This document shows, in pieces, positions 10,775 through 64,000 of a stretch of DNA of 64,000 nucleotides (position 1 is its first letter; each line of letters opens with the position of its first letter). The notes beneath the pieces are model-generated. The model saw only the letters and a program-made list of their open reading frames with translations. It ran no database searches and was not told where the DNA came from. The DNA comes from Oscillospiraceae bacterium. Lineage in GTDB: Bacteria > Bacillota > Clostridia > UMGS1810. The stretch lies in contig SVJZ01000006.1 in assembly GCA_015068705.1 (NCBI GenBank), positions 2,851 through 66,850 on the forward strand, in the 5' to 3' direction. The translations under genes were made by a program, and so were the position numbers.

Positions 10775-10778
10775 GGAT

Positions 10779-15199: not shown

Positions 15200-15204
15200 A
15201 ATAA

Positions 15205-15236: not shown

Positions 15237-15254
15237 CGTTTCAAAAGCGGGGTG

Positions 15255-16124: not shown

Positions 16125-16136
16125 AAAAGATGCATG

Positions 16137-16173
16137 GCACCCCTATGCTTTCTGTTGACGGGGGTGCTTTCTT
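16137..16173 (+). terminator. rho-independent terminator
   Basis: Stem GCACCCC / GGGGTGC followed by TTTCTT. Confidence 0.6.
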
Positions 16174-16214
16174 GTGATAAACTATAAGTACATTTTGGTA
16201 ATTAGGAGAGGCAC

Positions 16215-46081: not shown

Positions 46082-46873
46082 TCATTGTAATGTTTCGGTA
46101 ATCTGCTCATTTGGAATTTGCTTGCCGGAATGATCAACGGTAAAGTTTTCTTTGTAAATCAGCTCGGAAATCGGTACAATGCGGTATCCGTCGTTAATGA
46201 GACTTTCAAGAATACGGGGCAGTGCTGCAGGGGTGTTTTTTGCGGCGTTATGAAATAGCACAATTGACCCCGGTTTTACACGTTTTACCACACGGTCATA
46301 AATGGCGTCCGGAGATAAATCTTTCCAGTCGAGAGAATCTACGTCCCATTGGATGGTATAATGCCCTGCCTCGCGCAAATTTTCAACCACAGCATCGTTG
46401 TAATCGCCATAGGGAGGACGAAACAGGGTAGGGCGCGCTCCGGTAATTGCCTCTATTTTATCATCGCACCCCTTTACCTGCGTGAGCATTTGTTCTTTGG
46501 AAAGTTTTGTCATATGTGGGTGGGTGTCCGAGTGATTCATAATTTCGTGCCCGGCTTGGTGCAATTCCTTTACCGATTCCGGAAATTTTTCCACCCATTC
46601 GCCCACCACAAAAAATGTAGTTTTTACTCCGTACTTTCCAAGGATTTCTATCAGGTCATGGGTATCTTCATTTCCCCAAGCGGCATCAAAACTGATGGAA
46701 CAGACCTTTTCATCTTTTTTATCTACGCAGTAAATAGGGAGGTCGCGTTTTGGGGAAGCAGATTCAAACACCGATACCGCTGAATCCCAGTTTAATCCGA
46801 TTAATCCGCAAACCAATACTGCAATCAAACAGTAAATAATAAGATTGTCTTTATGTATCACAAAAATTTTCAT
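46082..46873 (-). CDS. NodB-type polysaccharide deacetylase, membrane-anchored
   Basis: NodB motifs: SFDAAWG, HSDTHPH, RPPYG. N-terminal TM helix. ATG 46873 is preferred over the ORF start at 46936. Confidence 0.85.
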   Translation of the reverse strand: MKIFVIHKDNLIIYCLIAVLVCGLIGLNWDSAVSVFESASPKRDLPIYCVDKKDEKVCSISFDAAWGNEDTHDLIEILGKYGVKTTFFVVGEWVEKFPESVKELHQAGHEIMNHSDTHPHMTKLSKEQMLTQVKGCDDKIEAITGARPTLFRPPYGDYNDAVVENLREAGHYTIQWDVDSLDWKDLSPDAIYDRVVKRVKPGSIVLFHNAAKNTPAALPRILESLINDGYRIVPISELIYKENFTVDHSGKQIPNEQITETLQ

Positions 46874-46969
46874 AAAATCACTCCTGAAAAAAGATATATG
46901 TTTTATTTTATGGGATAAGAAGAGGGGATATACCAAATTTAAACCTCTGGATTTTTTTGTGCAAAATCA

Positions 46970-46998
46970 TTGACAAAGAAAAAAAATAAAGGTATAAT
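46970..46998 (+). promoter_or_regulatory. perfect-consensus sigma-A promoter (TTGACA-17-TATAAT) 160 nt upstream of the AraC gene
   Basis: TTGACA 46970-46975, a 17-nt spacer, then TATAAT 46993-46998. Confidence 0.65.
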
Positions 46999-47160
46999 CA
47001 TTTATAAATCCATTGGAGTAATTAGCTGATTTGATGTAAAAGGGCACAAAACTGTATAACAGGCAGTTTATTCTTTTACATGCAAAAACATACATTTACA
47101 TGTTGTTTGGGATTTGATATAATAAGTTTGCGTTCTTTTTTATAAAGGAGGGCGATTGCG

Positions 47161-48033
47161 TTGGGTGAAGATTTGGCATTTGGTAATGTGCCGCGTTTAA
47201 CCATGGATGAATACGATGGATGGAAAAGCGGGATTTATGTTAAACGCCAGATTGTAAACAGGGTGTTTTCCAATCACTGGCATGATCATTACGAGATTGA
47301 ATATATCACCGAGGGAACCGGCACACATATTTTTAACGGAGCAAAATATCCTATTTATCCCGGCACGCTGCACCTGCTTACCCCAACAGATTTTCATGAG
47401 CTGATTCCGGACGGCGTATTCCACGGTATCAAGATCAATTATCGGGAAAGCGATGTAGACCCCTTTATTTTAAATACCATTGTCGGTCTTTCCACCGGTG
47501 CGCCGGTATATATATCGCAAGAAGAACGACCGTTTTTCGACAATTTGTTTCAGCTGGTGGCACAGGAAACAGAATTGTACAAGCAATCCCCATATTTTGT
47601 GTCATCCCTGCAAAAGCTTGTTGAAATCATTTTGCTCAATATTGTCAACCATTTCAAACATAGCAGCGAAGACTCTGCCGATTTGAAGGGGGACTTTAAG
47701 GCGAATAACGAAAAAATCCAACATATTCTGGTGTATATTCATCAGAACTTCAAAAAATCATTGGATTTAAAAACAGTTGCAGAGGCAGCGCATTATTCCC
47801 CGTCCTATCTGAGCCGGATATTCCATCGTACCATGGGAATTTCCTTTAAGGCATATATCACCAATTTACGGATGAATTTTGCGGCAAATCTGATTTCCAA
47901 TACAGATATGAAAATTACCGATATCGGCTATGAAACGGGATTTAGCACGCTTTCGAATTTTACCAAGGAATTTAAAAGGATTTATCACATGTCCCCATCT
48001 GATTATCGGATGGCAAACAAACAACGCGACTAA
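47161..48033 (+). CDS. AraC-family transcriptional regulator (cupin sensor + HTH) heading the surface glycan locus
   Basis: TTG 47161 lies 8 nt after an AAGGAGGG SD. HTH motifs: LDLKTVAEAAHYSPSYLSRIFHRTMG and IGYETGFSTLSNFTKEFKRIYHMSPSDYR. Confidence 0.85.
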   Translation: MGEDLAFGNVPRLTMDEYDGWKSGIYVKRQIVNRVFSNHWHDHYEIEYITEGTGTHIFNGAKYPIYPGTLHLLTPTDFHELIPDGVFHGIKINYRESDVDPFILNTIVGLSTGAPVYISQEERPFFDNLFQLVAQETELYKQSPYFVSSLQKLVEIILLNIVNHFKHSSEDSADLKGDFKANNEKIQHILVYIHQNFKKSLDLKTVAEAAHYSPSYLSRIFHRTMGISFKAYITNLRMNFAANLISNTDMKITDIGYETGFSTLSNFTKEFKRIYHMSPSDYRMANKQRD

Positions 48034-48047
48034 TATAAAAGACCCAC

Positions 48048-48084
48048 AAAGACGTCAGAATTTTTTGGCGTCTTTTTCTTTATT
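48048..48084 (+). terminator. rho-independent terminator after the AraC gene
   Basis: Stem AAAGACGTC / GGCGTCTTT (one G-U pair) followed by TTCTTTATTT. Confidence 0.7.
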
Positions 48085-48165
48085 TAGCAAAAATTTTTTT
48101 GAAAATACCAAGAGAGGGGAGAAACATCAAAATCGCAAGAAAATATTCGAAAAATAGTTAAAACT

Positions 48166-48252
48166 GTCATTTTTTTGTTGATAAAAAGTCGTTTTTTTGT
48201 AAAAAGCAAGAAAACATTTGTTAAAACTTATCCAATGTTGGTCATTTTTTGT
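48166..48252 (+). promoter_or_regulatory. three direct repeats GTC[AG]T(6-7)GT, helically phased, upstream of the SLH-gene promoter (candidate AraC operator)
   Basis: GTCATTTTTTTGT 48166, GTCGTTTTTTTGT 48188 and GTCATTTTTTGT 48241. Spacings are 22 and 53 bp. The last repeat ends 19 nt before the putative -35. Confidence 0.4.
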
Positions 48253-48270
48253 CATCATAACATACAAATA

Positions 48271-48299
48271 TTGCAAAACTTTTTGATCTATTGTATACT
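48271..48299 (+). promoter_or_regulatory. putative sigma-A promoter of the surface glycan operon
   Basis: TTGCAA 48271-48276, a 17-nt spacer, then TATACT 48294-48299. About 105 nt upstream of ATG 48406. Confidence 0.5.
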
Positions 48300-48405
48300 A
48301 TACACAATGGTATGATGTGTATTTTTCGTTTGTGCAGGTGGAAGTGCCAAAAAAAATACTGCGATATGCGTGATAATGACAATATTTTTATAGGAGGAAA
48401 AGACA

Positions 48406-50124
48406 ATGAAGAAAAGCGTAGGTTTAATGGTAGGGTTGTTGGTGTTGACCATGGTAACGCAAGCATTTGCATTGGATTGTGCAATTAGCTACAATGCGGC
48501 AACAAACGAGGTCAACCTGGTTGGAACAGCAAAAGCCCCGGTTTCTGTGCTGATATTGCCGGAGGATGTTGATCCGTCAACCATCGACGAGGAAAATGCG
48601 GTGGCGGCAGCGCAGTATGAATGGCGCGGCGTAACCGAGTTTGATGAAACCATTTTGTTGGACAAAAACCTGCCCAGCGGTACATACAATGTAACACTCA
48701 AAAGTAACGAACAGTACATGTTAACAACAACGGAAGAAGTCAACGATATACCGGCTCGTATTTATGGTACTATTACCGATAATATCAAATCTGTTTCGGG
48801 TTCCTTGTACCACATCAATATTGATGACGGCGAAGAAATGGTTGCCGATCTCAACACGGTAAAAACAGATGCGGATGCACTGTATGACATGATTGCAACC
48901 GGAAAGACGGGTGATGACAGTACCCCTGCCGAGGATAGAGTTCCGTATACCGAATTGATTGGTGTTACCCCCGAAGGATTTGCACAGTTTGGTGCATATG
49001 TTTCGGAGCAGATGGTGGGCACAAAAGATGGAGAGGATTTTACAGATATACAAGAAGTAATTGATTTAATGAATGAGTACCGAGTGCTTTATATGGCAAT
49101 CAACTCATCCACCCCCTCGGCAGTGATTAGCCAGAATGCAGAGTTCTATACGGCAGATGTTGCCCGTTTTGTAACGGCATTGGATGAACTGTCTGTCGCA
49201 AAATTCGACCTGCTTCTCAAAAATTTCAAGGCGGATGGCAGAAGCCTGTCGGAGGAATTGCCCGAACTTTCCGCACTGGCAACCGTGCAGGGTGCAGACA
49301 GATGGCAGACCATCGAAACGGTGGTAACCGATAGTCATGAGGAAATTGTAAACATCGACTATGATGTAGACAACCGCGACAGAGTATTCCAGCAGATGAT
49401 GGATTATACCTACGAAACCTTCCTTGATATTGAAGATAATTTTGCAAAAGCAAATTCCGAGGTAAACAAAGTGGATTACAAACCGGTAGTTCGCCCCAAC
49501 AAAGGTAATGGCGGCGGAGGCGGTGGAGGAGGAATCGGTGCATTTGAGATTGCCCCCTCCCGTCCCGAACAGCGCTACGAAGAAGTTGATGCAAAATCCT
49601 TCTCGGATGTGCCGGCTGATTTCTGGGGCAAGGATGCCATCAGCCAACTGGCTGCAAAAAATGTCATCTCGGGCTATCCGGACGGCTCTTTCCGTCCCGA
49701 GGGCAATGTAACCCGTGCCGAGTTTGTAAAAATGCTTACCACGGCATTCGGGCTTGCAACTGCGGCAGAAATTCCCTTTGCCGATGTAACCACTTCGGAT
49801 TGGTATTATAACTACATTCGCGCAGCATATGCAAGTGGTATCATCACCGGCGGCACTGATGGCACATTCAATCCCAACGGCGAGATTACCCGTGAGGATG
49901 CATGTGTGATTGTATATCGATATCTGTCCGGTATCGGCGTGCTGGATGCAGCCAAGGCAAGCTTTGCTGATGAGGGAGAATTTGCTTCCTACGCAGTAGA
50001 CGCCATTGCAACTCTTGCAGGAAACGGCATTGTAAACGGAGTGGGGAACAACCGCTTTGACGGCAAGGCAAGCATCAACCGTGCAAGCTGTGCAGTGCTT
50101 ATCTTAAACTGCTTGAATAAGTAA
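48406..50124 (+). CDS. SLH-domain surface protein (paralog of 870-2543)
   Basis: AGGAGG SD. Signal peptide ends in TQAFA. Linker GNGGGGGGGGIG. C-terminal triple SLH (FWGKDAISQLAAKNVISGY, DWYYNYIRAAYASGIITGG, SYAVDAIATLAGNGIVNGV). Confidence 0.88.
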   Translation: MKKSVGLMVGLLVLTMVTQAFALDCAISYNAATNEVNLVGTAKAPVSVLILPEDVDPSTIDEENAVAAAQYEWRGVTEFDETILLDKNLPSGTYNVTLKSNEQYMLTTTEEVNDIPARIYGTITDNIKSVSGSLYHINIDDGEEMVADLNTVKTDADALYDMIATGKTGDDSTPAEDRVPYTELIGVTPEGFAQFGAYVSEQMVGTKDGEDFTDIQEVIDLMNEYRVLYMAINSSTPSAVISQNAEFYTADVARFVTALDELSVAKFDLLLKNFKADGRSLSEELPELSALATVQGADRWQTIETVVTDSHEEIVNIDYDVDNRDRVFQQMMDYTYETFLDIEDNFAKANSEVNKVDYKPVVRPNKGNGGGGGGGGIGAFEIAPSRPEQRYEEVDAKSFSDVPADFWGKDAISQLAAKNVISGYPDGSFRPEGNVTRAEFVKMLTTAFGLATAAEIPFADVTTSDWYYNYIRAAYASGIITGGTDGTFNPNGEITREDACVIVYRYLSGIGVLDAAKASFADEGEFASYAVDAIATLAGNGIVNGVGNNRFDGKASINRASCAVLILNCLNK

Positions 50125-50237
50125 TCATTGATTGTAGGACCTGGCGTCCCCGACAATTCGTATGGTTTTGCATATACAATATATAAAGGAAGAAACTCGA
50201 TTTTTTAACACATTTTAGCAAACGGAGGTAATAAAGT

Positions 50238-53200
50238 ATGGTAATGAAGAAACTGACAAGCATACTGGTTGCAGCACTGATGATCATCACTTGCATGGCA
50301 CCTGTTACAGGCTTTGCGGCAGAGAGCACCGTACTGTTTAGCGAAGGCTTCAACGCTTCGGCTACATACGGCAATGCTCCTTCTGTAATTGCAGTCGATG
50401 GCGGCAGCGGTAACGGCGTTATCGACCTGGGCGAGGAAAATAAGGCGTTTTCCATCGGCTTGGACCACACTGTGGCAAACATAAGCTTTGCCGCATCTCC
50501 TTCATCCGGTGTGGTTTGGTATGGTATGCGTTTTCGTGTCAATGGCACATTGGAAGGCGGCGCAATGTTTCAGCTGATTGATAGCGCCGGCGCAAAGACC
50601 AACCTGATTAACATCTCCAATAATGGTGCATCTCTTTATGACGGCAAATATTTCGGCAAGGTGCAGAAAAACATCTGGTCGGATATGCATGTAAAGATTG
50701 ACTACACAAACAAACTCTATTCGGTGTATGTAAATGGCGAATGTGTGCAGAAAGACTGGAAGATTACCGGCACCGTTCCCACTGCAGCACGTATCGGCTT
50801 TGAGTTTATCAATAACGCAAGTATCGGCTCGGTGGAAATTGACCACATTGTTGCCTACCGCGACAATAAAGTAATGACAAAATATCCCAAACAGGAGTTT
50901 AATCCCGAGGTTGCAGAGGTAGAAGAGGGTAGTGCCGAAAAGGTAAAACGTCTGTATGTGTTTGACGATTTTAACTACCTTGGCGGTCTTGACTGTACTT
51001 ATATAAGTACTGTGCCGGGTAAGGGTGTCATCGGCACACGTAGCCAGAAGGGTATGTCATATTACACCGAGGGTGACCGCATGTATCTGCACATGGAGGT
51101 GGATGCAGGCATTGCCAACGCACCTCACTTTGACGTTGTAATGAAGCGGTTTAATTCCACCCAGTATGTCATTGATATGATGCTTAATATCTTCCAGTTG
51201 GACAGCCGTATCTTCCAGATGGGTCTGCAAAAGGGCTACAATTCCGGCTCCAAATGGCTGATGGCCGCCGAAACAAATGGTGTTATCAGGTGTGGCGGCG
51301 ATGTATTTAATGAACTTACCTACAACCGTTGGACCCGTGTTTCCTTTGCGATAGACGCTACCAAGTCCACTTTTGACGTGTACATTGACGGCGTGCTGGT
51401 GCGCGAGGGCTGCACCATCACCGGAAATGCGCGCGATATCGACCGTATCTCGGTTGACTTCAGTGCAGGCTCGGGTGCTGCCTCTCTGGGTATTGACGCC
51501 CTTGCCATTTACGAGGGCACCGAGTTGATGCCCAGCCTGGAGCAAAAAGATTACACCGGTTATTTTGTAAATAGTTATGAATGGGACGACCAGGAAGTAA
51601 ACGCCTGGATTGGTAATAAGGCAATCTATTGTAATACCAACTCTGCCTTCTATAAGGAGGGCGTGAAGAAGGAGTATGATGGAGAAAACGAAAAATACGG
51701 TTATGTAACCATCGAAGGTACTCCGATGGGTATTGTAAAAACCATGGCAGAGGCATACGGCTTGACCGCTGACTATAATGAAGAAACTCAAATCGTTACT
51801 TTAAGTGACGGCACCACCATGAAGGTAGGGGACAACGTATTCATTAAGGATGGCAAAGAGATTTCTGCCGGCGGAAACATTGAGTTCAAAAACGGCGAGG
51901 TATTTGCACCGTTGCGGCCCTTCTTTGAAAAGATTCATGGTAAGACGACCACCTATGAAAGCACTTGGGAGTTGCTCTTTATCACCGAGGACGGCACTTC
52001 AGTGGATACCACCAATGCCGAAATGATGAAGATGATCATGCACCTGATGATTTTCCGCCGTATGAGCGGTGAAGAGGCACTTGCCACCATTCAGGAACGC
52101 TGGCCTAATCAACAGCATCCTCGTCTGTGTGCAACCGAAGAGGCGGTAGCACAGGTGCGTAAAAACATCGAAACCGACGAAAATGCAAAAAAACTGTACG
52201 AGTATTTGCGTGCGACATGTGACGGTGTGTTGAGCGCACAACCGAATCAGTGGAGAGACCTTGGCAATGGTCGATTAGACATGGTTCGAACCACCGAAGA
52301 TCGTTTGTCCAACCTGGGATATATGTATCACATTTCGGGTGATGAGCGCTATGCAGAGCGTGCAATGGTGGAGATAGACGATATTCTTACGCGACCATAT
52401 TTTGCCGATGCACATCCGCTCAACCGTGCGGCAATTATGGGCGGTCTGTCCCGTTGCTATGATTTGTTTTTCGATCATTTAGGGGAAGAACGCCGTGCAA
52501 AAATCCGCAAGATTGTGAAGGGCTTATGGGAGGATGTTCTCTTTGACGGCTCGGATGCTACTGCGATGCGCGCACACACCTGGATGCGTACCGGAGACAA
52601 CTTTGGTTCGGTACACAACGGAACCTATCTGGAATCTACACTGACCTTTATGGATCATCCCGAAATGCAGGAATATGGCACACTGCTCTTTGAACAGATG
52701 CTCCGCCATCACGAATATGCAACACAGGATTATGCGCCGGACGGCGCATGGCCAGAGGGTGTTGGATACTGGAAATATACCATGCTGGAATGGGCACCTG
52801 CTACCATGAGCTTGCGTAGTGTACTTGGCGACACCATGGGTCGTGAGGACCATCTGGGCCTTAGAAATGCAGGTTACTTCTTGGTAGACGTTACCGGTAT
52901 GGCGCATGCAAACCTGTTCCATGACTCTGGTACCGGAGCCAAGCAGTATTCCAGAAAAGACGTGGTAGAGCAGTCTCATGCTCACTTTGCACTTTCCACA
53001 CTGTATCAGGACCCCAACATCTTAAATGCTTGGATGGGCTTTATCGATAACTTCCTGTATAACAACGAAGGAACCTCACTAATGTGGTATAACCCCAATC
53101 TGCAGGGCGGCGATGATGGAGCTTTGGATCATCGCTACAGAGGTGAGCTGGACATGGTAGCGCTTCGTTCTTCCTGGGAAGACGAAAATGCAATGCTCCT

Positions 53201-54605
53201 TACCGCACATTCCGGTCAGAACTATATGAGTCACTCCCACATTGACGGTGGCACCTATGTAATGGACGCCATGGGATATAGCTGGGTAATTGACGTGGGT
53301 ACCGAGGATTATTCCAATCCATATAGCCCGGTAGAAGGTAATTTCTATGTAACCCGTCCCGAGGCACACAATGTGTACCTCATTAATCCTCGTGCAGGGT
53401 ATCAGGGACAGGATCTGTATGAAAAGAGTGCTACTACCATGTTTGAAACCAGTGACCGTGAGGGCTTTGCGGTTGTCAACATGCAGCCCTATTATAAAGA
53501 GGATGTTATCACTGCGCAGCGTGGATTTAAGATGGCAGATGACCGCCGGCACCTGATTGTTCGGGATGAGATGGTACTGAAGAACGCATCCGAGGTATAC
53601 AGTTTCATCCACACAAAGGCAAATATTGAGATTATCGATAATAATACCGCCATCTTTGAGCAGTTTGGCAAGAAGATGCTGGTAGAGGTATTTACCAACG
53701 GACGTGACCTGACAATCGAGGAGATGGAATGTGAAATCCTGCCGGTTTACAATAAACCCAAGCAGCCTAGAGCGCGTGATATGAGTGAATACCGCAAGCT
53801 GGGTATCAAACTCAATGCGAACGGTTCGCTGAATATCACTGTAAAATACACGCCGCTCTATGAGGATATCACCGAAACAGAGTATGAGGACGAAATGCTT
53901 GCTCTGTGGAAGTGCGCCGAGGGCGAGTTGCAGTTGCCCCGCCTGACCGACGTACTGGTAGACGGCGTTTCGGCAGAGCGCTTTAATCCGCTCAACAGCC
54001 AGGTAACCGTTACCCTGCCGGCAAAAACCACCAAAGTTCCGGTAATTACCGCAACCGCAGATGAAAAGTATAACGTAGAGGTAAGACAAAACGCTTCCGA
54101 TACACTCATGGACGATGTTATCATCAAGGTGAGCGAAAAGGCAAACCCCGACAACGCTTGGTATTACACCGTGCGGTTTGACCTGACTCAGTACGGCATT
54201 GAAAGTCTGGATGGATTAAAACTTGCCAATATCCAGAGCATCATCGAAGAGGATACCGGCGCGGTTATCATGGATCCCCTTACCGACCGCAATTTCGCTA
54301 CCGAGCGTTATGAGAGTTTGGGTGGTTTTGATTATCTGATTGACCTTGGTAGTGTACAGGAACTGGATTCCATCGTTACCGCGTGGGGCTATATAAAAGA
54401 CCAGAAGTACTACTTTGACGTGGCATACTCGGAGGATGGCGAGAATTGGGAGCTCAAGACTTGTCATATTTCAGCCGGTACCGAGGGCTATGAACGGCTC
54501 CATCTGGACGAGGGTGCACATGCTCGTTACATCCGCATTTCGCCCAATGGTCGTATTGGCGGAATGGTTTCGCGCCTCAACGAGGTTGCTATCGTAGTAA
54601 AATAA
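50238..54605 (+). CDS. secreted 1455-aa multidomain putative polysaccharide lyase (2 LamG-like + Cu-amine-oxidase-N-like + heparinase II/III-like core + cadherin-like + discoidin domain)
   Basis: Signal peptide ends in GFAAES. LamG signatures: WSDMHVKIDYTNKLYSVYVNGE and WTRVSFAIDATKSTFDVYIDGV. Stalk-like domain GLTADYNEETQIVTLSDGTTMKVGDNVFIKDGKE. Lyase N-toroid motifs QHPRLCATEE and YHISGDERYAERA. Beta-sandwich motif HSHIDGGTYVMDAMGYSWVIDVG. C-terminal motifs VLVDGVSAERFNP and HARYIRISPNG. Confidence 0.85.
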   Translation: MVMKKLTSILVAALMIITCMAPVTGFAAESTVLFSEGFNASATYGNAPSVIAVDGGSGNGVIDLGEENKAFSIGLDHTVANISFAASPSSGVVWYGMRFRVNGTLEGGAMFQLIDSAGAKTNLINISNNGASLYDGKYFGKVQKNIWSDMHVKIDYTNKLYSVYVNGECVQKDWKITGTVPTAARIGFEFINNASIGSVEIDHIVAYRDNKVMTKYPKQEFNPEVAEVEEGSAEKVKRLYVFDDFNYLGGLDCTYISTVPGKGVIGTRSQKGMSYYTEGDRMYLHMEVDAGIANAPHFDVVMKRFNSTQYVIDMMLNIFQLDSRIFQMGLQKGYNSGSKWLMAAETNGVIRCGGDVFNELTYNRWTRVSFAIDATKSTFDVYIDGVLVREGCTITGNARDIDRISVDFSAGSGAASLGIDALAIYEGTELMPSLEQKDYTGYFVNSYEWDDQEVNAWIGNKAIYCNTNSAFYKEGVKKEYDGENEKYGYVTIEGTPMGIVKTMAEAYGLTADYNEETQIVTLSDGTTMKVGDNVFIKDGKEISAGGNIEFKNGEVFAPLRPFFEKIHGKTTTYESTWELLFITEDGTSVDTTNAEMMKMIMHLMIFRRMSGEEALATIQERWPNQQHPRLCATEEAVAQVRKNIETDENAKKLYEYLRATCDGVLSAQPNQWRDLGNGRLDMVRTTEDRLSNLGYMYHISGDERYAERAMVEIDDILTRPYFADAHPLNRAAIMGGLSRCYDLFFDHLGEERRAKIRKIVKGLWEDVLFDGSDATAMRAHTWMRTGDNFGSVHNGTYLESTLTFMDHPEMQEYGTLLFEQMLRHHEYATQDYAPDGAWPEGVGYWKYTMLEWAPATMSLRSVLGDTMGREDHLGLRNAGYFLVDVTGMAHANLFHDSGTGAKQYSRKDVVEQSHAHFALSTLYQDPNILNAWMGFIDNFLYNNEGTSLMWYNPNLQGGDDGALDHRYRGELDMVALRSSWEDENAMLLTAHSGQNYMSHSHIDGGTYVMDAMGYSWVIDVGTEDYSNPYSPVEGNFYVTRPEAHNVYLINPRAGYQGQDLYEKSATTMFETSDREGFAVVNMQPYYKEDVITAQRGFKMADDRRHLIVRDEMVLKNASEVYSFIHTKANIEIIDNNTAIFEQFGKKMLVEVFTNGRDLTIEEMECEILPVYNKPKQPRARDMSEYRKLGIKLNANGSLNITVKYTPLYEDITETEYEDEMLALWKCAEGELQLPRLTDVLVDGVSAERFNPLNSQVTVTLPAKTTKVPVITATADEKYNVEVRQNASDTLMDDVIIKVSEKANPDNAWYYTVRFDLTQYGIESLDGLKLANIQSIIEEDTGAVIMDPLTDRNFATERYESLGGFDYLIDLGSVQELDSIVTAWGYIKDQKYYFDVAYSEDGENWELKTCHISAGTEGYERLHLDEGAHARYIRISPNGRIGGMVSRLNEVAIVVK

Positions 54606-54615
54606 CAAAGCCATA

Positions 54616-54644
54616 GGAGAGGACGGCAACGCTCGTCCCTCTCC
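54616..54644 (+). other. intercistronic stem-loop without a U-tract
   Basis: GGAGAGGACG / CGTCCCTCTCC, a 10-bp stem with a 1-nt bulge. It lies between the lyase gene and the 829-aa gene. Confidence 0.5.
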
Positions 54645-54683
54645 AAACGGCGTTATCATAATTTTAAGGAGGCGTGATATATC

Positions 54684-57173: not shown

Positions 57174-57201
57174 AAATTTTTAAGAAAAGGAGAGAAGAAA
57201 C

Positions 57202-58836
57202 ATGAGAAAAAAAGCAAAGCAACTTGTTGCACTGGCGCTGGCAGGCATGATGTTACTGTTGTGCGGCTGCGGCGGTGGCGGTACTACGGTAAGCTCCACC
57301 GAGTATGACTTCGAGGTTACCATGGCACCCGGTTACCCCATCGACAATACCCAGGAAATCGAGTGGTGGGTACCCATCAATGTTGGCGTTACCACCAAAT
57401 ATGGTAACCTGACCGACACACCGTTTGCGGCAATGCTCAAAGAAAACACCGGTGCAAACATCAAATTCATCCATCCGCCTACGGGTCAGGAGGCTTCCCA
57501 GTTTAATATCGTGGTATCCTCGGGTCAACTCCCCGATATCATGAGCTATAGCTGGGGCAATTACGCAAACGGCGGTTCTGCCGGTGCGGTGCGTGACAAC
57601 CTGATTCTTCCCATCAACAAGATTTTGGAAAAGGGTGGAGCACCTGCACTCAAAGCACTGCTTGACAGCAACCCGGTATGGAAAGACAGCGTATATACCG
57701 ACGAAGGTTGGCTCCCCGGTTTCCCGAGTGTTGGTGCATTGAGCCAGGTAGTTTATTCGGGACCCATGATTCGTAAAGACCTTCTGGATAAAGCAGGTCT
57801 TGGCATCCCCGAAACCATCGCAGAAATCGAAACTGCACTGTATGCGTTCAAAGAGCAGGGCATCAAAATCCCGCTCGAGGTTGAGCTTGGCAAACACATG
57901 GTTGCCGGTAACGCAGTGGTAGGCGGTTTCGGTATCGGCGCATCCTACTATGTAGACAACGGCAAAGTAAAATACGGTCCCGCACAGCCGGAATTCAAAG
58001 AGTTCCTCGCTACCATGAACAAGTGGTTCAATGACGGCTTGTACGACAGAGAATTCTCCACCTTGCAAGGTTCGGGTCGTATGACCTCTGAATTGTTGGC
58101 AGGTAATATCGGTCTGGCGTTCGGTGCAAACGGCGGTAACTGGGGTAAATATCTCCCTGCATTGGAAGAAACCCGTCCCGACGTGAAATTTGTTACCATG
58201 CCGTTCCCGACCACCGAGAAGGGCAAAAAACCCGAATTCGGTCACATGGAAAACCGCGCAGGCGGTGCATACACTGCCATCACCACCGGTTGTGACAATA
58301 TCGAACTGGCTGCAAAACTTCTCGACTATGCTTACACCGAAGAAGGTCATTTGGCTACCAACTACGGTAAAAAAGGTCGCGACTGGGAGTATGATGCAGA
58401 TGGTATTGTAAGATTTACCGATGCATTCACCAACCAGAATTCCGAAATGAATGGCGGTCAGTCTGTATCCGACATGATGGGTCAGCACACTGCAAGCGGC
58501 AGCGTAGCATTTGGTCGTGTGCAGGACGAGGGAATCCTGAACGTACTGTTCTCTCGTGAGGACCAGAAGGAAAACGTTCGTATCTGGACTCAGACCAACA
58601 TGGCAGAACACCAGTTCCCGAATGTGCAGTATACCACCGAGGAAGCACAGGAAATCGCTTCTCTCAAAACTGCAATCGAAACCCACATGCATGAGATGAT
58701 GTATAAGTTCATCGCAGGTACCGAGTCCCTGGATAAATGGGATACCTACCTTGCAAACTACGAAACCATCGGTCTTTCCCGTGCATTGGAAATCATGCAG
58801 GCTGCATACGACAGATATGTCGCACGTACGAAATAA
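57202..58836 (+). CDS. lipoprotein, ABC-transporter extracellular solute-binding protein (family 1, large LplA/LipO-like type)
   Basis: Lipobox MMLLLCGCGGGG. 544 aa with typical SBP features (IKFIHPP, PDIMSY, NKWFNDGLYDREF). No permease or ATPase genes are adjacent. Confidence 0.85.
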   Translation: MRKKAKQLVALALAGMMLLLCGCGGGGTTVSSTEYDFEVTMAPGYPIDNTQEIEWWVPINVGVTTKYGNLTDTPFAAMLKENTGANIKFIHPPTGQEASQFNIVVSSGQLPDIMSYSWGNYANGGSAGAVRDNLILPINKILEKGGAPALKALLDSNPVWKDSVYTDEGWLPGFPSVGALSQVVYSGPMIRKDLLDKAGLGIPETIAEIETALYAFKEQGIKIPLEVELGKHMVAGNAVVGGFGIGASYYVDNGKVKYGPAQPEFKEFLATMNKWFNDGLYDREFSTLQGSGRMTSELLAGNIGLAFGANGGNWGKYLPALEETRPDVKFVTMPFPTTEKGKKPEFGHMENRAGGAYTAITTGCDNIELAAKLLDYAYTEEGHLATNYGKKGRDWEYDADGIVRFTDAFTNQNSEMNGGQSVSDMMGQHTASGSVAFGRVQDEGILNVLFSREDQKENVRIWTQTNMAEHQFPNVQYTTEEAQEIASLKTAIETHMHEMMYKFIAGTESLDKWDTYLANYETIGLSRALEIMQAAYDRYVARTK

Positions 58837-58855
58837 TGTCAGCTATTTGACTTGT

Positions 58856-58937
58856 GGGGAATGCCCAATGTGGCTTGCCGCAGGAACTCCCCAAGGAGTA
58901 ACAGGGCATTCTCCATGGAATTTCGCCGATGGGCGAA
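58856..58937 (+). other. structured intercistronic RNA element (long-range 11-bp stem plus a second hairpin)
   Basis: GGGGAATGCCC (58856-58866) pairs with GGGCATTCTCC (58904-58914), including one G-U pair. An alternative pairing is TGGGGA with TCCCCA (58888-58893). A second hairpin is TTCGCC-GATG-GGCGAA (58922-58937). No U-tract. Confidence 0.45.
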
Positions 58938-58994
58938 CTCTTGCAACATAGTAGTTTCAAAAAATCACTTTAATCCGAAAGGAAGGATTTTGTA

Positions 58995-61900
58995 ATGAAA
59001 CGTTTGATTAGTTTGTTGGTAACACTCGCTATGCTCGCCGGTATGTGCGTAAGCGTTGGCGCGGCATTACCTGCGACAACCGAGTATGCGCCTGTTGAAT
59101 CTCCCGGTGCAGAACTAAAAACTCCGTTTTCACATTATGTGGCAAATGCATATGAAAACGAATTTGTACCCGGAAAAGGTCTTGCCGGCAAGGAACAGGA
59201 TTTGGTCTACAAGATTACCACCACCAAGGGTCGCTCGGATGCGCAACTGAGATTAACAGATGCTGCTCTGGCTGCACATACCACCTACGAGGATGGCGAA
59301 AAGGTGCACATGACCACCGAGATCATGATTCCGTCCGGAACAGAGTTTTACTACCTCTCAAGCCCCGCTATAAACGTAGAGGTTTTGACTGGCGAAAAGG
59401 GCGGAGAGTTGACGGCAAACGGTATTGGTGTAAAGAACAAGGGCGCAAAATCACGTACGACTGCCTCCAATCTGATTTCAGGTCACCAAAAACAGTTGGT
59501 CGTATTTAACACTACAAACAAGCACTTTGAATTGTTTGGCAGAGGTGTTTATACCGATACATCTTGGGAATATGACCAGTGGTATCGCTTTGATATCGTA
59601 CTCACCATGGGCAGCAATCCGCGTGCATCCATTTATGTGGATGGAGAGCCGATGAGAATTAACGTAGATTACGGCAATGGTGTAGGATACCATCACAATG
59701 ATTCGGATGCAACCTTCGATGGAAGCAGAACCACCTCGGAGGATGTAAAGATTGGTTACTATGACTCTTCTTGGAATTATTTTGACACCGGTATTTGGGG
59801 TGTAAAAGGCTTTTGTCCGGTAGTTACTGTTATGGGTCCCACGCAGGGAGCAGAGGATTTCAACACAATATATGCAGACAATGTAAGCTACAAGGTACTT
59901 GCAAAGGGTGTTGAGGCAAATATCCCCGAGGCACTCGGTATTGCCGGTTATGCAGACGGCGCAACGGTTGATCCGTCTCTCCTCAATGAGGTTACTGTAA
60001 ATCCGCCCTCCTGGTCGGCACACAAGGTTTCCAAGGTTACATTGTCGGTAGACGGCGCAACTGCACAGGAGGATACCGAGGCGCCGTATACTTTTGATTT
60101 GTCCAATCTTGAACGTGGTGTGCGTCATATCACGTTGACAGCATATGATTCTCAAGATTTGATAATCAAACAGAGAGTGCAGACCATGGTGGTTGCAGGT
60201 AACGAAAAACGCATCTATTTAGATGAAAACTTTAATGAATTTGCAAATACCAACGCACTTCTTTCCGGAAAATTTTACGGCAGATCTACCAGAGTAGAAA
60301 ATCTTGATGGCACTACCAGAAACATTACGTTGGAGTCGGTTACGGATTCTACCGATGTGACGCATGAGAAGGCAGTAAAGATTTTCTCAAATGGCGCAGA
60401 CGTTGACTTCAAATGGGGCGCAAACCCCAATAGTGCCGACTCTGTAGCCGGCTGGCCTTCGATGAAGCAAGGCTCTACAGGTCTTATGAAGGTAGAGTAT
60501 GATGTATATCTGTCGGATATGACAAACGTGAGCAAATTGTATGTTAGCCTCAACAACAATGGAGCTAACTATGTGATTTGGGATGCTGCCACCCAAAAAT
60601 TCACCACCTTCGATCAGGGCGGTTGGGCAGGTATCAACACGTCTGCAAGCTTTGACCCCGTGGTTGGCAAGTGGCACAAATGGCAGTGGGAAATCGATCA
60701 CTTCAAGGGCAAGGCATCCTTGTGGGTAGATGGTCAGCTCGTGTTGGACAGAGGCAATATTCATTCTGCCACAGCAGGACTTGGTGATGGTGTTGGCTTT
60801 ACCTTTAATGTTGCTGAAGGCACCGGTGCCTTCATGGCAGTGGACAATATGAAAGTGTCCAGCGAAACCGCACCCGCTACCATCGAAAAGGTAATGAAGA
60901 GCGTGAATAGCGGTACCCTTTACAGCACCATGGATTGGGCAACCCAGATTTATCCGAACGAAGGCTTTATTGGAAAGAATGGAGATGCTGTGACCTTACC
61001 CGCCGGCGCAACCGCAAGCGGTGTAAAAGGTGCGGTAGTATATGGAGAAGATGGCGAAACACCGCTCAATGCGAATTTTGGAGAGAGTCTGGTGGTAGAA
61101 TTCAGTGACCAGGATACGGTTGGTGCATCTTCCCAGATCATGATTCCCATTGCAATTGGTGTAGGTCAGTATAATGATACCTCTCCGCATTTCACCAATA
61201 CAGTAGTAGAATTTGATATGTATCGTTCCAATACCAATCATGGTGATTTTGCTATGGCTGTTGCAACCAACGTTGCTTTGAAAGTGGCTGCCGGCACATC
61301 TCGTATCAAGGTTAATCCACAGGGCTATTACGATTCGTATACTGATATGGCAGTCGGACAGTGGCAACATCATCGGTTAGAGTTTGATTATAGCGGTTCG
61401 TTTGCAGGTCCTTTGAAATATTATGTGGACGGTAAGCTGGTTTATCACGGATCCAGCGGGTATAACTTCACGCATGAAACAAGTCGCCAGGGTCGGTTGA
61501 GATTTATGTTCAATGGTGCAAAAGATGAAACAACTGGCAAATTTAAACCGTGTAAATTTGCTATTGACAATGTGAAGGTAAATTATACTCCCATCGTACC
61601 CTATATCCATGGTGTTGACTTTGGAACAGGCAATGGTTCGGGCAATCTGGTAAAAGCAGGTACCATGACTCCGGTGGTAAATATTACCGGTCACGGTCTG
61701 AATTTTACTAACCTGGCAACCCTTCTTACCGTAACCGACGAAAAAGGAAATCCGGCAACTATGGGTACTCCGGTAGGAACGTCTAACTATGGACAAATGG
61801 GTGCTACCATTTCCCTCACAGATTTGGTGTTGGAGCCCAACAAAACCTATACCATCAAATTGGCGGCAGGTTTGCCCTACGATGGTGGTCGTGCTATGAA

Positions 61901-62405
61901 AACACATGAACCCATGAGCTACACCTTTAAAACAGTGGCAGAACTGCCCACTGTTACACCGGTACCCGGCGACGGCGTTGCAGGTGATATCACAGTAACG
62001 GGTGTTCGTATGAATTCGTATGGTCCGTATATGATGGGTGACTATATGGTAGAAGCATACGCAGGTGGCGAGATTTCAAACAACAGACGGTTGCGTGCAG
62101 ATGTGTTGGTAAGCAATGCATCGGAAGAGACTCAGACCTTCCGTGCAATCATTGCAACCTATTCGGATGGTAAACTGACTAATGTTTCTCTGGGCGAGCC
62201 CTGCGTGGTAAATCCCTTGGATAAAAACGTTCTCGTTTCCAGTGGTGAGGTTACCGTAATCAGAACAGAGAATGAGGATGAAGAAGCGCTCGACCAATTC
62301 GTTGACGAATTTACCGCAAAAGCATTCCTGGTAAATGACATGGCTACCTTTACTCCCATCTCTTATTCGTACGACATTTTTGGTAATATTGCAAGTGTAG
62401 AGTAA
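58995..62405 (+). CDS. secreted 1136-aa LamG-like / Ig-like repeat protein (paralog of 54684-57173); no recognisable catalytic domain
   Basis: Signal peptide ends in SVGAAL. Three LamG signatures: WYRFDIVLTMGSNPRASIYVDGEP, WHKWQWEIDHFKGKASLWVDGQL, WQHHRLEFDYSGSFAGPLKYYVDGKL. Ig-like module VTLSVDGATAQEDTEAPYTFDL. Big_5-like module ending YTFKT. Confidence 0.8.
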   Translation: MKRLISLLVTLAMLAGMCVSVGAALPATTEYAPVESPGAELKTPFSHYVANAYENEFVPGKGLAGKEQDLVYKITTTKGRSDAQLRLTDAALAAHTTYEDGEKVHMTTEIMIPSGTEFYYLSSPAINVEVLTGEKGGELTANGIGVKNKGAKSRTTASNLISGHQKQLVVFNTTNKHFELFGRGVYTDTSWEYDQWYRFDIVLTMGSNPRASIYVDGEPMRINVDYGNGVGYHHNDSDATFDGSRTTSEDVKIGYYDSSWNYFDTGIWGVKGFCPVVTVMGPTQGAEDFNTIYADNVSYKVLAKGVEANIPEALGIAGYADGATVDPSLLNEVTVNPPSWSAHKVSKVTLSVDGATAQEDTEAPYTFDLSNLERGVRHITLTAYDSQDLIIKQRVQTMVVAGNEKRIYLDENFNEFANTNALLSGKFYGRSTRVENLDGTTRNITLESVTDSTDVTHEKAVKIFSNGADVDFKWGANPNSADSVAGWPSMKQGSTGLMKVEYDVYLSDMTNVSKLYVSLNNNGANYVIWDAATQKFTTFDQGGWAGINTSASFDPVVGKWHKWQWEIDHFKGKASLWVDGQLVLDRGNIHSATAGLGDGVGFTFNVAEGTGAFMAVDNMKVSSETAPATIEKVMKSVNSGTLYSTMDWATQIYPNEGFIGKNGDAVTLPAGATASGVKGAVVYGEDGETPLNANFGESLVVEFSDQDTVGASSQIMIPIAIGVGQYNDTSPHFTNTVVEFDMYRSNTNHGDFAMAVATNVALKVAAGTSRIKVNPQGYYDSYTDMAVGQWQHHRLEFDYSGSFAGPLKYYVDGKLVYHGSSGYNFTHETSRQGRLRFMFNGAKDETTGKFKPCKFAIDNVKVNYTPIVPYIHGVDFGTGNGSGNLVKAGTMTPVVNITGHGLNFTNLATLLTVTDEKGNPATMGTPVGTSNYGQMGATISLTDLVLEPNKTYTIKLAAGLPYDGGRAMKTHEPMSYTFKTVAELPTVTPVPGDGVAGDITVTGVRMNSYGPYMMGDYMVEAYAGGEISNNRRLRADVLVSNASEETQTFRAIIATYSDGKLTNVSLGEPCVVNPLDKNVLVSSGEVTVIRTENEDEEALDQFVDEFTAKAFLVNDMATFTPISYSYDIFGNIASVE

Positions 62406-62420
62406 TTTCATTCCTGTTTG

Positions 62421-62450
62421 TGTATGATGCGCCTTCCGGCGCATCATACA
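62421..62450 (+). terminator. 13-bp perfect hairpin after the 1136-aa gene (terminator or RNA-stability element; no U-tract)
   Basis: TGTATGATGCGCC - TTCC - GGCGCATCATACA. Confidence 0.45.
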
Positions 62451-62489
62451 CAGGCAATATTAAAAATCTATAGAATTCAGGTGACCCGA

Positions 62490-64000
62490 ATGAATTGGAA
62501 AAAAATCAAAAATTTCATAATGCTTGGTTTGTTGTTTGCGTGTGTAATCGTATTGCCCGCATATGCACGGGTTTATCTGGAAGACTTTGAAAAGAGCACC
62601 ATGTTTCGCCCCGGCTATGATTATGTAGGAGGGGGCTATATTAACGGAACCTATCTTTGTCCCCATTCTGCTTCTACCATCCATGTGCAAGATGGTGCGC
62701 TTTACTATGATTTCAGTGCTGAAGAAAAGGATGGAAACTGGAAGAACTCCATTGCTTTTCAAAAGTATATTTCCATCGATCAAAATTCCTATGTGGATTT
62801 TACCTTTACCCGCGATTCGATTGATAACACGGGCGTATATCTGTGTTTGGACAACTGGGACAGCACCGGCGGAGACAGATCTATTACCCCGTTTCATCTA
62901 AAGGGAGATACCATCACACTTGGCTATAGTGATAATGGGGGCGGTGAAACCATTACCTATACCGGATTGACTGGGCATGTAGCAGCGTATGCTGAGAATT
63001 TACCCACTGGTGGATGTCGTGTTACCGTATGGCTCAATGGTGAACAGGTTTATAGCTATGTGAATCCTTATTATACCATCACCGCAAAACAGAATCAGAT
63101 TCAAACACAGTTTGTTGCAATGGCAAAGATGGATGTAGGGGATACACTACCTACAATTACCATTGATAATGTAAAAATCCTGCAGGATGAGGGAATGCCC
63201 ACCGAGGCAGTTTATGCCGGAGACCCCGAACTGCAATTTGACTACGAAAACGGCGGAATGTTTTTCATGAGTGAAAATACATTTCCTTTCCATAGAGTAA
63301 AAAGTGTAAGACAAATCGCAAATTTCAGCCATCAGGTGCAGACTGTTGAAAATGTACTGGCACAGTATGGCGATGCAGATAGATATAAAATACAGAAAGA
63401 AACCCTGCAACCGGGCGAGGTGTTGGTTGCAGAACTACTCGACAATGCCGCAGACCTGGATGGCGTAAAGGATGTAAAATCCTTTGTTTGGGATAAAATG
63501 ACCAATCTGACACCCCTGGTGCAAGGATTTGGCGTGGAAGAATCCATTGCAAAGGCAGACCGTCCCGAGGTGCTGGCACAAAAGCTGATAAGAGTAGGGG
63601 ATACCCACCCCCGTATTCTCACCACCGCAGCAGAGCTTGCCAAGGTAGAGCAATACAAAGAGGATGAAACCTTTGCCGATATGTACACCTCGTTGGTGGA
63701 TTGGAGAAACACCCAGAACAGTGGCTCGTATATGACGGCCGGCATTCCCAACCACGGGAGTGGCACAGGTTCTATCTGCGACATGATTTATGATCGTGCA
63801 ACCGTGTGGGGTTATCTCTATCAGACCACAGGCGACGAGCAATATGCAGCAGACCTCATGCGAGACATGGTGAAGGTTGCAGAATATGATAACTGGTATG
63901 ACGAAGTAAACTATGGCGGAAACGGACGGTTTTTATATACCGCTCACATCGCCGCTGCACTTGCCATTGGTTATGATATGACCTATGACTATTTGAGTAA
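62490..64000 (+). CDS. 5' part of a secreted LamG-like + heparinase II/III-like protein; continues beyond the window (absent from the supplied ORF track)
   Basis: ATG 62490 follows a CAGGTGA SD. I translated 503 codons by hand with no stop up to nt 64000. Signal peptide MNWKKIKNFIMLGLLFACVIVLPAYA. LamG signature CRVTVWLNGEQV. Lyase N-domain motifs GDTHPRILTTAAELAKV and YQTTGDEQYAADLMRDM, parallel to those in the 1455-aa protein. Confidence 0.85.
   Translation, partial: MNWKKIKNFIMLGLLFACVIVLPAYARVYLEDFEKSTMFRPGYDYVGGGYINGTYLCPHSASTIHVQDGALYYDFSAEEKDGNWKNSIAFQKYISIDQNSYVDFTFTRDSIDNTGVYLCLDNWDSTGGDRSITPFHLKGDTITLGYSDNGGGETITYTGLTGHVAAYAENLPTGGCRVTVWLNGEQVYSYVNPYYTITAKQNQIQTQFVAMAKMDVGDTLPTITIDNVKILQDEGMPTEAVYAGDPELQFDYENGGMFFMSENTFPFHRVKSVRQIANFSHQVQTVENVLAQYGDADRYKIQKETLQPGEVLVAELLDNAADLDGVKDVKSFVWDKMTNLTPLVQGFGVEESIAKADRPEVLAQKLIRVGDTHPRILTTAAELAKVEQYKEDETFADMYTSLVDWRNTQNSGSYMTAGIPNHGSGTGSICDMIYDRATVWGYLYQTTGDEQYAADLMRDMVKVAEYDNWYDEVNYGGNGRFLYTAHIAAALAIGYDMTYDYLS

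Follow-up and report, generated by a model that had tools for sequence, protein, structure and literature searches.

The question raised by the locus described here is which task is shared by a transcriptional regulator and six predicted secreted proteins whose genes follow each other at the end of a DNA stretch from an Oscillospiraceae bacterium. The stretch, hereafter the window, comprises 64,000 nucleotides (assembly GCA_015068705.1, contig SVJZ01000006.1, positions 2,851 to 66,850), and the locus extends from position 47161 to its end at 64000. An open reading frame (ORF) scan resolved seven ORFs, all on the plus strand (Table 1). They encode an AraC-type regulator, a protein with S-layer homology (SLH) domains, a 1455-aa multidomain lyase, an 829-aa protein with LamG-like and immunoglobulin-like (Ig) modules, a lipoprotein solute-binding protein (SBP), a 1136-aa LamG/Ig protein and the first part of a second lyase. 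An earlier note on this DNA had interpreted the region as a Gram-positive counterpart of a polysaccharide utilisation locus for an acidic glycan, and this view is now supported by the lyase active site and the homology of the SBP. We think, with a probability of roughly 70%, that the region represents a Gram-positive polysaccharide utilisation locus (gpPUL) of an uncultured Oscillospiraceae/Ruminococcaceae bacterium that serves the use of a uronic-acid polymer by the steps proposed further below. A uronate-containing glycan is the likely target because the catalytic triad and the Mn2+ site of the lyase are conserved and, independently, because the SBP is homologous to the only SBPs of known structure for unsaturated glycosaminoglycan (GAG) disaccharides and for alginate oligosaccharides.

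The catalytic core of the 1455-aa protein had been described as a heparinase II/III-like fold of the PL12/15/17/21 type that could not be placed further, but it proved to be closest to the CAZy family PL35, to which it would belong or directly adjoin. In a phmmer comparison with all PDB chains, the region aa 620-1154 matched GAGase II (8KHV, 2.7e-34), BcPL35 (9O3Q, 6e-27) and GAGase VII (8KHW, 2.6e-26), with the remaining heparinases reaching 0.12 at best. A family profile that was built from the 1455-aa protein and ten homologues and run against the PDB matched the three PL35 structures at 3e-107, 3e-100 and 1e-90, and other families at 1.5e-19 (PL17), 1.4e-18 (PL33), 5.7e-18 (PL15) and 3.8e-14 (PL21). 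An AlphaFold2 (AF2) model of aa 590-1200, with a mean predicted local distance difference test score (pLDDT) of 67, consists of a helical toroid followed by a beta domain, parts of which are of low confidence. Foldseek searches with this model placed the three PL35 structures on top, with E-values of ~1e-18 to 1e-19 and template modelling (TM) scores of ~0.57-0.60. The PL35 enzymes GAGase II, GAGase VII, BcPL35 and VvPL35, which have been characterised biochemically and structurally (PMC11262172, PMC12088678, PMC12269599), are therefore the best matches in sequence, profile and fold, and they have in common with the core described here a DUF4962-type toroid with a Hepar_II_III_C domain, an Asn/Tyr/His triad and a His/Asp/Asp/His Mn2+ site.

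Mutagenesis identified Asn192, Tyr246 and His401 as essential residues of GAGase II, together with the Mn2+ ligands His403, Asp405, Asp421 and His457 (PMC12088678). In the alignment to GAGase II, in which the numbering of the PDB chain is shifted by 22 from that of the publication, the triad corresponds to Asn788, Tyr844 and His999 of the 1455-aa lyase, and the Mn2+ ligands correspond to His1001, Asp1003, Asp1019 and His1044. The triad is invariant across all homologues that span these positions and the Mn2+ site is kept in eight of the ten. A loss of the Tyr/His/Asn constellation, which the earlier note had named as an observation that would speak against a lyase, is thus not seen at the sequence level. 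The HSH codons that it had located at nt 53232 lie exactly there and begin with aa 999; the HPR motif is likewise present, at aa 627, although its first codon starts at nt 52116 instead of nt 52115.

Around this core, the 1455-aa lyase is laid out as a signal peptide, two LamG-like modules (~aa 30-440), a Cu_amine_oxidN1 domain, the PL35-type module, a beta-sandwich and a carbohydrate-binding module (CBM) 32-like domain. Pfam matches were graded against the curated cut-offs, and by this measure the modules listed earlier hold only in part. Cu_amine_oxidN1 (aa 493-571), Hepar_II_III_C (aa 992-1176) and F5_F8_type_C (aa 1368-1442) score above their cut-offs, and elsewhere in the locus so do HTH_18 and AraC_binding of the regulator, the three SLH repeats of the 572-aa protein and SBP_bac_1 of the SBP. 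DUF4962 remains below (20.7 bits versus 28.7), although close homologues pass, as does Laminin_G_3 (24.6 versus 27.6), for which the paralogue P0003 scores 30.0. The beta-sandwich at ~aa 1230-1300 may be cadherin-like, the match having an E-value of only 0.16. The family profile matches the discoidin module to the CBM32 domains of the alginate lyases 5zu6 and 7w12 at ~1e-23 to 1e-22.

The last ORF of the locus is, as predicted from its relatives, the start of a second PL35-like lyase. The fragment inside the window comprises a signal peptide, a beta-rich N-terminal region and the beginning of a toroid with an HPR motif at aa 373. It has no Pfam match of its own in the window, a contig scan of genomes with this fragment gave no match, and the homologue search returned one partial relative. 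In related loci, however, its counterparts are a 1350-aa and a 1372-aa protein (loci L003 and L002, respectively), with whose N-termini it shares 46-48% identity, and these orthologues carry Hepar_II_III_C and match the PL35 structures at 1e-28. Together with the 29% identity of the fragment to the toroid start of the 1455-aa lyase (aa 627-748), this bears out the earlier description of the ORF as heparinase-like.

The second line of evidence comes from the SBP, which carries the lipobox LLLCG|C and matches Pfam SBP_bac_1 at 8e-20. Its closest solved relatives are Smon0123 (5GUB, 5GX8, 5XS8; 5.6e-39) and AlgQ1/AlgQ2 (~3e-30), both matched over the full length of the SBP; in the case of Smon0123, residues 68-538 align to residues 38-502 of the chain. 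AlgQ1 and AlgQ2 bind alginate oligosaccharides. In Streptobacillus moniliformis, Smon0123 serves as the SBP of an ABC importer that takes up unsaturated disaccharides of hyaluronan and chondroitin (PMC5430744). This homology independently supports an acidic oligosaccharide as the predicted cargo. The SBP had been called an orphan, which is true only inside the window: since orthologous loci carry permease genes, the protein very probably belongs to a CUT1-type ABC importer, and the window would end before the expected permeases. Two BPD_transp_1 permease genes lie directly 3' of the second lyase gene in an orthologous locus (L003, 14050-15983), and in a distant locus (L008) two permease genes are found 5' of the SBP gene (5205-7004).

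The orthologous locus just mentioned is located in a Clostridia metagenome-assembled genome (MAG; JAZNPF010000016.1, covered by L001 and L003) and contains, in this order, genes for an AraC regulator, an SLH protein, a 1454-aa protein, an 849-aa protein, an SBP, an 889-aa protein, the 1350-aa lyase and the two permeases. More generally, a set consisting of a giant PL35-like protein that includes a discoidin domain, large beta-rich proteins, an SLH protein of ~550 aa, an SBP with two permeases and an AraC regulator recurs in Clostridia, in loci whose lyases are 57%, 50%, 26% (L008) and 22% (L010) identical to the one described here. Directly 5' of the orthologous locus (L001, 1-6665) lie nagB, nagA, a GFO/IDH/MocA gene, uxuA, a D-mannonate oxidoreductase gene and a second GFO/IDH/MocA gene, of which nagA, uxuA and the D-mannonate oxidoreductase gene score above the NCBIfam cut-offs. 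These genes are predicted to encode the catabolism of N-acetylglucosamine (GlcNAc) and glucuronate. GH109 has the GFO/IDH/MocA fold as well.

A gpPUL is defined by the combination of enzyme, transporter and regulator (PMC5320581). In the window, the enzymes are represented by the two PL35-like genes and the regulator by the AraC gene; of the transporter, the SBP is encoded inside the window and the permease genes are seen only in the orthologous and distant loci. The gpPULs of Roseburia and Eubacterium rectale (Sheridan et al. 2016, PMC5320581) are alike in having an AraC-type regulator, secreted carbohydrate-active enzymes (CAZymes) that carry binding modules and an ABC importer for oligosaccharides whose SBP is a lipoprotein, and in lacking a SusC/SusD pair. 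They differ in that SLH-anchored partners or giant non-catalytic LamG/Ig proteins are not described for them, and in that they belong to Lachnospiraceae, whereas the locus described here and its relatives occur in Oscillospiraceae/Clostridia MAGs. A single polysaccharide lyase was found in the entire pan-genome analysed in that study (PMC5320581). As no SusC/SusD Pfam match was obtained for any gene of the locus or the related loci, and no cohesin or dockerin match for the seven locus proteins at E<=0.01, a cellulosome or a Sus-type organisation was rejected.

From these observations, a sequence of events can be proposed. The cupin domain of the AraC regulator would sense a breakdown product and switch on the downstream genes. 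The two secreted lyases would then depolymerise the glycan outside the cell by a Mn2+-assisted beta-elimination, a chemistry that is deduced from the mutagenesis of PL35 enzymes. In this reaction, Asn788 is expected from the alignment to neutralise the carboxylate, with His999 and Tyr844 acting as base and acid. The LamG-like and CBM32-like modules of the lyases and the LamG-like modules of the two giant proteins may hold the polymer at the cell surface, and the SLH protein, judged by its conserved co-occurrence, may keep the apparatus near the wall. Finally, the SBP would capture the unsaturated oligosaccharides and, with two permeases as present in the orthologous loci, import them for catabolism in the cytoplasm.

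Which uronate polymer is degraded is less easily answered. Our best guess is an unsulfated polymer of glucuronic acid (GlcA) and N-acetylhexosamine (HexNAc), that is, a chondroitin-, hyaluronan- or heparosan-like glycan of host or microbial origin. Such a substrate is favoured because polymers of this type are the main substrates of every characterised PL35 enzyme (PMC11262172, PMC12269599), and because nagB, nagA, uxuA and the D-mannonate oxidoreductase gene neighbour the orthologous locus L001.

Several observations weigh against this assignment or against the PL35-based reading as a whole. Since the identity to the characterised PL35 enzymes is only ~22-25%, their substrate specificity cannot be transferred. 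At the positions of Arg87 and Arg88, two of the basic residues with which GAGase II binds its substrate, the 1455-aa lyase has Asn677 and Gly678. The position that precedes the neutralising Asn is occupied by Asp787 and varies among the homologues; in most GAGases it is Asn, and in the alginate-active GAGase III it is His (PMC12088678). The AF2 model is of low confidence around His999 (pLDDT ~40). The nag/uxuA neighbourhood is found in one orthologous locus only, and the locus in the window is flanked by housekeeping genes. Genes for a GH88/GH105 unsaturated uronyl hydrolase, KduI/KduD or a sulfatase were not seen in any of the loci. A variant locus (L004/L005, from Oscillospiraceae and Clostridia MAGs) is devoid of an SBP, has an SLH protein that differs from the type in the window, and carries a GH130-like gene that points towards beta-mannosides. 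In L005, this gene, which shows weak similarity to beta-1,2-mannobiose phosphorylases, follows a second, 985-aa PL35-like lyase together with a gene for a 913-aa protein with an SLH repeat (12937-16850), and hints at a mannose-containing substrate in the L004/L005 lineage. The next genes in L005 encode DeoR, MFS and S15 peptidase proteins. L004 stems from the Oscillospiraceae isolate 'SIG433', a series that we take to originate from cattle rumen, where GAGs are presumably scarce.

It is thus quite possible, if not what we favour, that the same apparatus acts on a different acidic substrate, such as a microbial exopolysaccharide (EPS) or capsule, glucuronan, glucuronomannan, an alginate-like polymer or a glucuronate-bearing plant glycan of the rumen or gut. 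Besides the low identity to GAG-active PL35 enzymes, the partial loss of basic substrate-binding residues, the GH130-like gene and the absence of a sulfatase gene from every locus, it would be in line with such a substrate that one PL35 enzyme cleaves alginate as well (PMC12088678), that the discoidin module is closest to CBM32 domains of alginate lyases and that AlgQ1/2 are among the top matches of the SBP. In the latter comparison, however, the GAG-disaccharide binder Smon0123 outperforms AlgQ by about nine orders of magnitude, nagA, nagB and uxuA adjoin the orthologous locus, and the characterised PL35 enzymes all degrade mainly GlcA-HexNAc polymers. A GlcA-HexNAc polymer remains our preferred substrate.

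Of the two LamG/Ig giants, the 829-aa protein consists of a LamG-like jelly roll, a Big_7 Ig domain, a further LamG-like jelly roll and additional Ig-like beta domains, and it has just weak Pfam matches to Big_7, TS_C and GH131_N. The 1136-aa protein has three to four LamG-like jelly rolls and a Big_7 Ig domain, with Ig-like domains at its C-terminus; its first ~600 aa are collinear with the 829-aa protein (23% identity, E 1e-18). The family is very small, as an exhaustive HMMER profile search of 1.84 billion representative proteins found 12 proteins below 1e-30, and most of the weaker matches represent the Big_7 Ig module alone. A profile search of the PDB returned Ig modules only, and a contig scan of metagenomes with the 1136-aa family gave just a 1-kb fragment. 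Among 14 family members, Pfam detects Big_7 in nine, Big_5 in three and Laminin_G_3 in two, the rest being sub-threshold matches to concanavalin-like families. The AF2 model of the 1136-aa protein, based on an alignment of five sequences, is all-beta and poor (pLDDT 58); its Foldseek matches, all of low TM score, include the Vibrio cholerae sialidase, which we take to be matched through its lectin wings, LG domains of neurexin and laminin, galectin, CBM40-type domains, GH131 and PL7.

We propose that these giants are glycan-binding accessory proteins, because of the kinds of residues that they conserve, because a module is shared with the lyases and because they evolve fastest. The invariant or near-invariant residues of the 14 homologues are Gly, Pro, aromatic residues, Asp and one Asn, with no conserved cluster of His, Arg, Lys, Glu or Gln. 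One LamG-like module of the 1136-aa protein recurs at the N-terminal end of the 1455-aa lyase family (hhalign probability 81%, E 1.2e-5) and also in the C-terminal part of the second lyase. The identity to the counterparts in related loci is 30-39% for the giants, the fastest-evolving genes of the locus, versus 72-74% for the SBP, the best-conserved one. The statement that the giants have no recognisable catalytic motif is thus in agreement with both the Pfam analysis and the residue conservation. It appears unlikely that they are enzymes of unrecognised families comparable to the jelly-roll families PL7, PL14, PL18, PL20, GH16 and GH131, which would mean a greater catalytic diversity of the locus. 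A sub-threshold match to the Pfam family Polysacc_lyase (PF14099, E 1e-4, aa 551-593) and that to GH131_N, the occurrence of GH131 and a PL7 lyase among the many lectin folds of the Foldseek list and the conserved position of the genes in orthologous loci could be read in this way. These matches stay below curated cut-offs or come from the low-confidence model, however, the best structural matches are to lectin, LamG and CBM40-type domains, their rapid evolution fits surface binding proteins, and the lack of a conserved residue cluster and the presence of the same module type as an appendage of the lyases speak against enzymes as well. The giants could possibly represent new glycan-binding families, or even catalytic ones.

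The SLH protein is composed of an N-terminal region of ~390 aa, a Gly-rich linker and three C-terminal SLH repeats (Pfam SLH 4e-39 in three stretches), and it provides the sole wall-anchoring module of the locus, whereas the lyases and giants have no anchor. No relative of the N-terminal region was found in Pfam or the PDB; the region is conserved in the orthologous loci (59-60% identity) and in the distant loci L008 and L010, and it is kept in every SLH-containing locus seen, including those with a lyase that is merely 26% or 22% identical. It is tempting to speculate that the gene set forms a cohesin- and dockerin-independent, wall-anchored multiprotein 'utilisome', in which the lyases and binding proteins, having no anchor themselves, would dock to the N-terminal domain of the SLH protein. 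Such an apparatus would be a functional analogue of the SusCDEF/surface glycan-binding protein (SGBP) complexes of Bacteroides, but we consider this doubtful.

The presence of an SLH protein in every locus also raises the thought that the locus is not nutritional, and instead remodels or turns over a polymer of the bacterium's own envelope (capsule, EPS or secondary cell-wall polymer) or is an adhesion apparatus. A polysaccharide deacetylase gene adjoins the AraC gene in divergent orientation, and the genome contains several paralogous loci and many SLH proteins, which would agree with such a role. However, one and the same string of genes encodes an AraC-type regulator and an ABC importer for oligosaccharides, which is a catabolic signature according to the gpPUL definition, and genes for a glycosyltransferase, flippase or polymerase are absent from the locus, so that we regard an envelope or adhesion function as very improbable. 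An assignment of the heparinase II/III-like cores to uronate C5-epimerases or to binding domains without activity can hardly be upheld: although dermatan-sulfate epimerase has the same fold and PF16332 is now named 'DSE-like_N' in Pfam, the family profile matches this epimerase about 100 orders of magnitude more weakly than PL35 (3.9e-8 versus 3e-107), for which reason an epimerase function was rejected, and the full lyase triad, the Mn2+ site and the catabolic context of the locus argue against it as well.

How does the locus, read as a gpPUL for a uronic-acid polymer, compare with systems in which PL35 enzymes or similar importers are known? The characterised PL35 enzymes are single-module proteins of ~70 kDa (624-648 aa) from Spirosoma, Bacteroides and Victivallis, whereas here the PL35-like module is embedded in Gram-positive proteins of ~1350-1455 aa together with LamG-like, Cu_amine_oxidN1, Ig-like and CBM32-like modules, in addition to the sequence divergence and the exchanged arginines mentioned above. 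In PUL25 of Bacteroides caccae, which encodes a PL35 enzyme with GH88, GH109 and a GH154-type dehydratase (PMC12269599), PL35 likewise is the keystone depolymerase of a dedicated locus, and the GFO/IDH/MocA-type genes near one orthologous locus, having the GH109 fold, are reminiscent of it. PUL25 is built on SusC/SusD, however, and contains no ABC importer, SLH protein or LamG/Ig giants, and its GH88 has no counterpart in the loci described here. The GAG cluster of Streptobacillus moniliformis with its ABC importer Smon0120-0123 (PMC5430744) and the AlgQ1/Q2 system of Sphingomonas A1 share the full-length SBP homology and the arrangement of lyase genes next to an SBP-dependent importer for acidic oligosaccharides. 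In these clusters, PL8 and PL12 lyases are used and GH88, KduI/KduD and sulfatase genes stand beside the transporter, none of which were seen here, and SLH anchoring is absent from both organisms, which are Gram-negative.

In the literature, PL35 in Gram-positive or rumen bacteria was found only in the form of counts in metagenome surveys. The occurrence of PL35-like modules in modular Gram-positive proteins of 1350-1455 aa, their constant pairing with a particular SLH protein and LamG/Ig giants, and the expansion of such loci in one genome appear to be undescribed. The earlier view that this is not a described system therefore needs to be divided: the gpPUL definition and the PL35 family had already been published, and it is the architecture and the gene set that were not found described. 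PL35 is a young lyase family that is known so far from single-module enzymes of Bacteroidota and Victivallis with an unusually broad GAG specificity. If confirmed, the present reading would extend it to Gram-positive gut and rumen bacteria, in proteins of ~160 kDa from uncultured Oscillospiraceae/Clostridia, provide new enzymes for uronate glycans and define two families without annotated function, one being the N-terminal domain of the SLH protein and the other the LamG/Ig giants. Always found alongside the lyases, these two families may reveal how Gram-positive bacteria that lack cellulosomes retain their machinery for glycan degradation at the wall. As the logic of a regulator, secreted CAZymes and an ABC importer is already established, the finding would be incremental and not conceptual.

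The genome carries at least three such loci. Besides the locus described above, the C-terminal part of a third giant lyase lies at the left end of the window; it is collinear with the C-terminus of the 1455-aa lyase, ends in an F5/8 type C domain and is followed by a gene for an SLH paralogue (Table 1). A further paralogous locus (locus tags E7409_07280 to 07305) is located elsewhere in this MAG, on a different contig, and the proteins of the paralogous locus are annotated as hypothetical in GenBank.

Table 1. Positions of the features in the window and, where available, identity of the encoded proteins to their counterparts in related loci.
Feature	Position	Strand	Description	Identity to counterparts
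Third giant-lyase paralogue, C-terminal part	7-855	+	282 aa; 28% identity to aa 1168-1450 of the 1455-aa lyase, E 1e-20	
SLH paralogue	855-2543	+	562 aa; linker and SLH part 35% identical to the 572-aa SLH protein	
SLH-domain protein	26714-28549	+	611 aa; N-terminal SLH	
Polysaccharide deacetylase (Polysacc_deac_1)	46082-46936	-	N-terminal membrane anchor; divergent from AraC gene	
Two promoter-like sites	46970-47123	+	5' of AraC gene; 12/12 and 11/12 consensus matches	
AraC regulator	47161-48033	+	290 aa	48% (same-position gene of L001)
Intrinsic-terminator-like hairpin	48048-48075	+	3' of AraC gene; 12 bp stem, then T run	
AT-rich direct repeats	48093-48225	+	inside the 372-nt AraC-SLH intergenic region	
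Promoter-like site	48271-48299	+	consensus match	
SLH protein	48406-50124	+	572 aa	59-60%
Multidomain lyase	50238-54605	+	1455 aa	50-57%
PL35-type catalytic module	52095-53699	+	aa 620-1154; predicted alpha/alpha toroid and antiparallel beta-sheet domain	
F5/8 type C (discoidin, CBM32-like) module	54339-54563	+	Pfam 34.1 bits versus cut-off 28.2; domain aa ~1316-1442	
LamG/Ig protein	54684-57173	+	829 aa	36-39%
Lipoprotein SBP	57202-58836	+	544 aa	72-74%
LamG/Ig protein	58995-62405	+	1136 aa	30-37%
Perfect 19-bp stem-loop	62415-62456	+	between 1136-aa gene and second lyase gene	
Second lyase, 5' part	62490-64000 (window end)	+	first 503 aa	33-48%

A Shine-Dalgarno sequence precedes each gene of the locus, and the six products encoded downstream of the AraC gene have N-termini with a basic n-region, a hydrophobic core and an AxA-type site, by which features signal peptides were judged. 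The description of an AraC gene followed by six plus-strand genes for exported proteins was therefore correct, as was the list of these genes; only their order has to be changed, as the SBP gene sits between the 829-aa and 1136-aa genes and not after both.

The AraC regulator combines a cupin-type ligand-binding domain (AraC_binding, 2e-12) with two helix-turn-helix (HTH) motifs (HTH_18, 7e-25; HTH_AraC, 5e-21). The promoter-like sites in Table 1 are consensus matches, and their total count in the region is not above that of shuffled sequence. The hairpin downstream of the AraC gene is terminator-like and would close the AraC transcription unit. The direct repeats in the following intergenic region, which include two 18-nt copies at a distance of 22 nt (48161-48200), could be operator half-sites of the AraC regulator, but they are two-copy families in AT-rich DNA and possibly due to chance. 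The stem-loop in front of the second lyase gene has a folding energy of -33.2 kcal/mol (z = -9.5 versus shuffles) and was not called by the terminator scan because it has no U tract; it may function as an intercistronic RNA stabiliser or as an attenuator.

The left border of the locus is sharp, as the region from 16 to 46 kb contains housekeeping genes, including those for RF-1, Sua5, TsaD, DnaX, the threonine pathway, an energy-coupling factor (ECF) transporter and TruA. An origin from a mobile element or plasmid was rejected, since the sole plasmid matches are distant heparinase II/III genes, and it is also disfavoured by the GC content and GC skew, which continue smoothly from the housekeeping DNA into the locus. 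The exception is a dip in GC content (0.40) in the 46-48 kb bin, in which the AT-rich intergenic regions that flank the AraC gene are located. The deacetylase gene next to the AraC gene may or may not be part of the locus; it is not present in the orthologous locus L001. In L003, the permease genes are followed by a short ORF with an AraC-type HTH only (15990-16370), which may be a truncated regulator, and a further SLH protein gene lies 3' of it.

At the other end of the window, a string of carbohydrate- and surface-related genes (2536-16124) extends 3' of the paralogue fragment. It encodes an 867-aa SLH protein, a GH36 alpha-galactosidase (5108-7330), an HpcH-type aldolase, a GFO/IDH/MocA oxidoreductase, a GH63/MGH1-like hydrolase (9289-10740), class-III and DegT aminotransferases, an SDR protein and two AraC-family regulators. 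A 611-aa SLH-domain protein is encoded amid the housekeeping genes (Table 1), and judged by such predicted domains the organism evidently has many SLH-anchored surface proteins.

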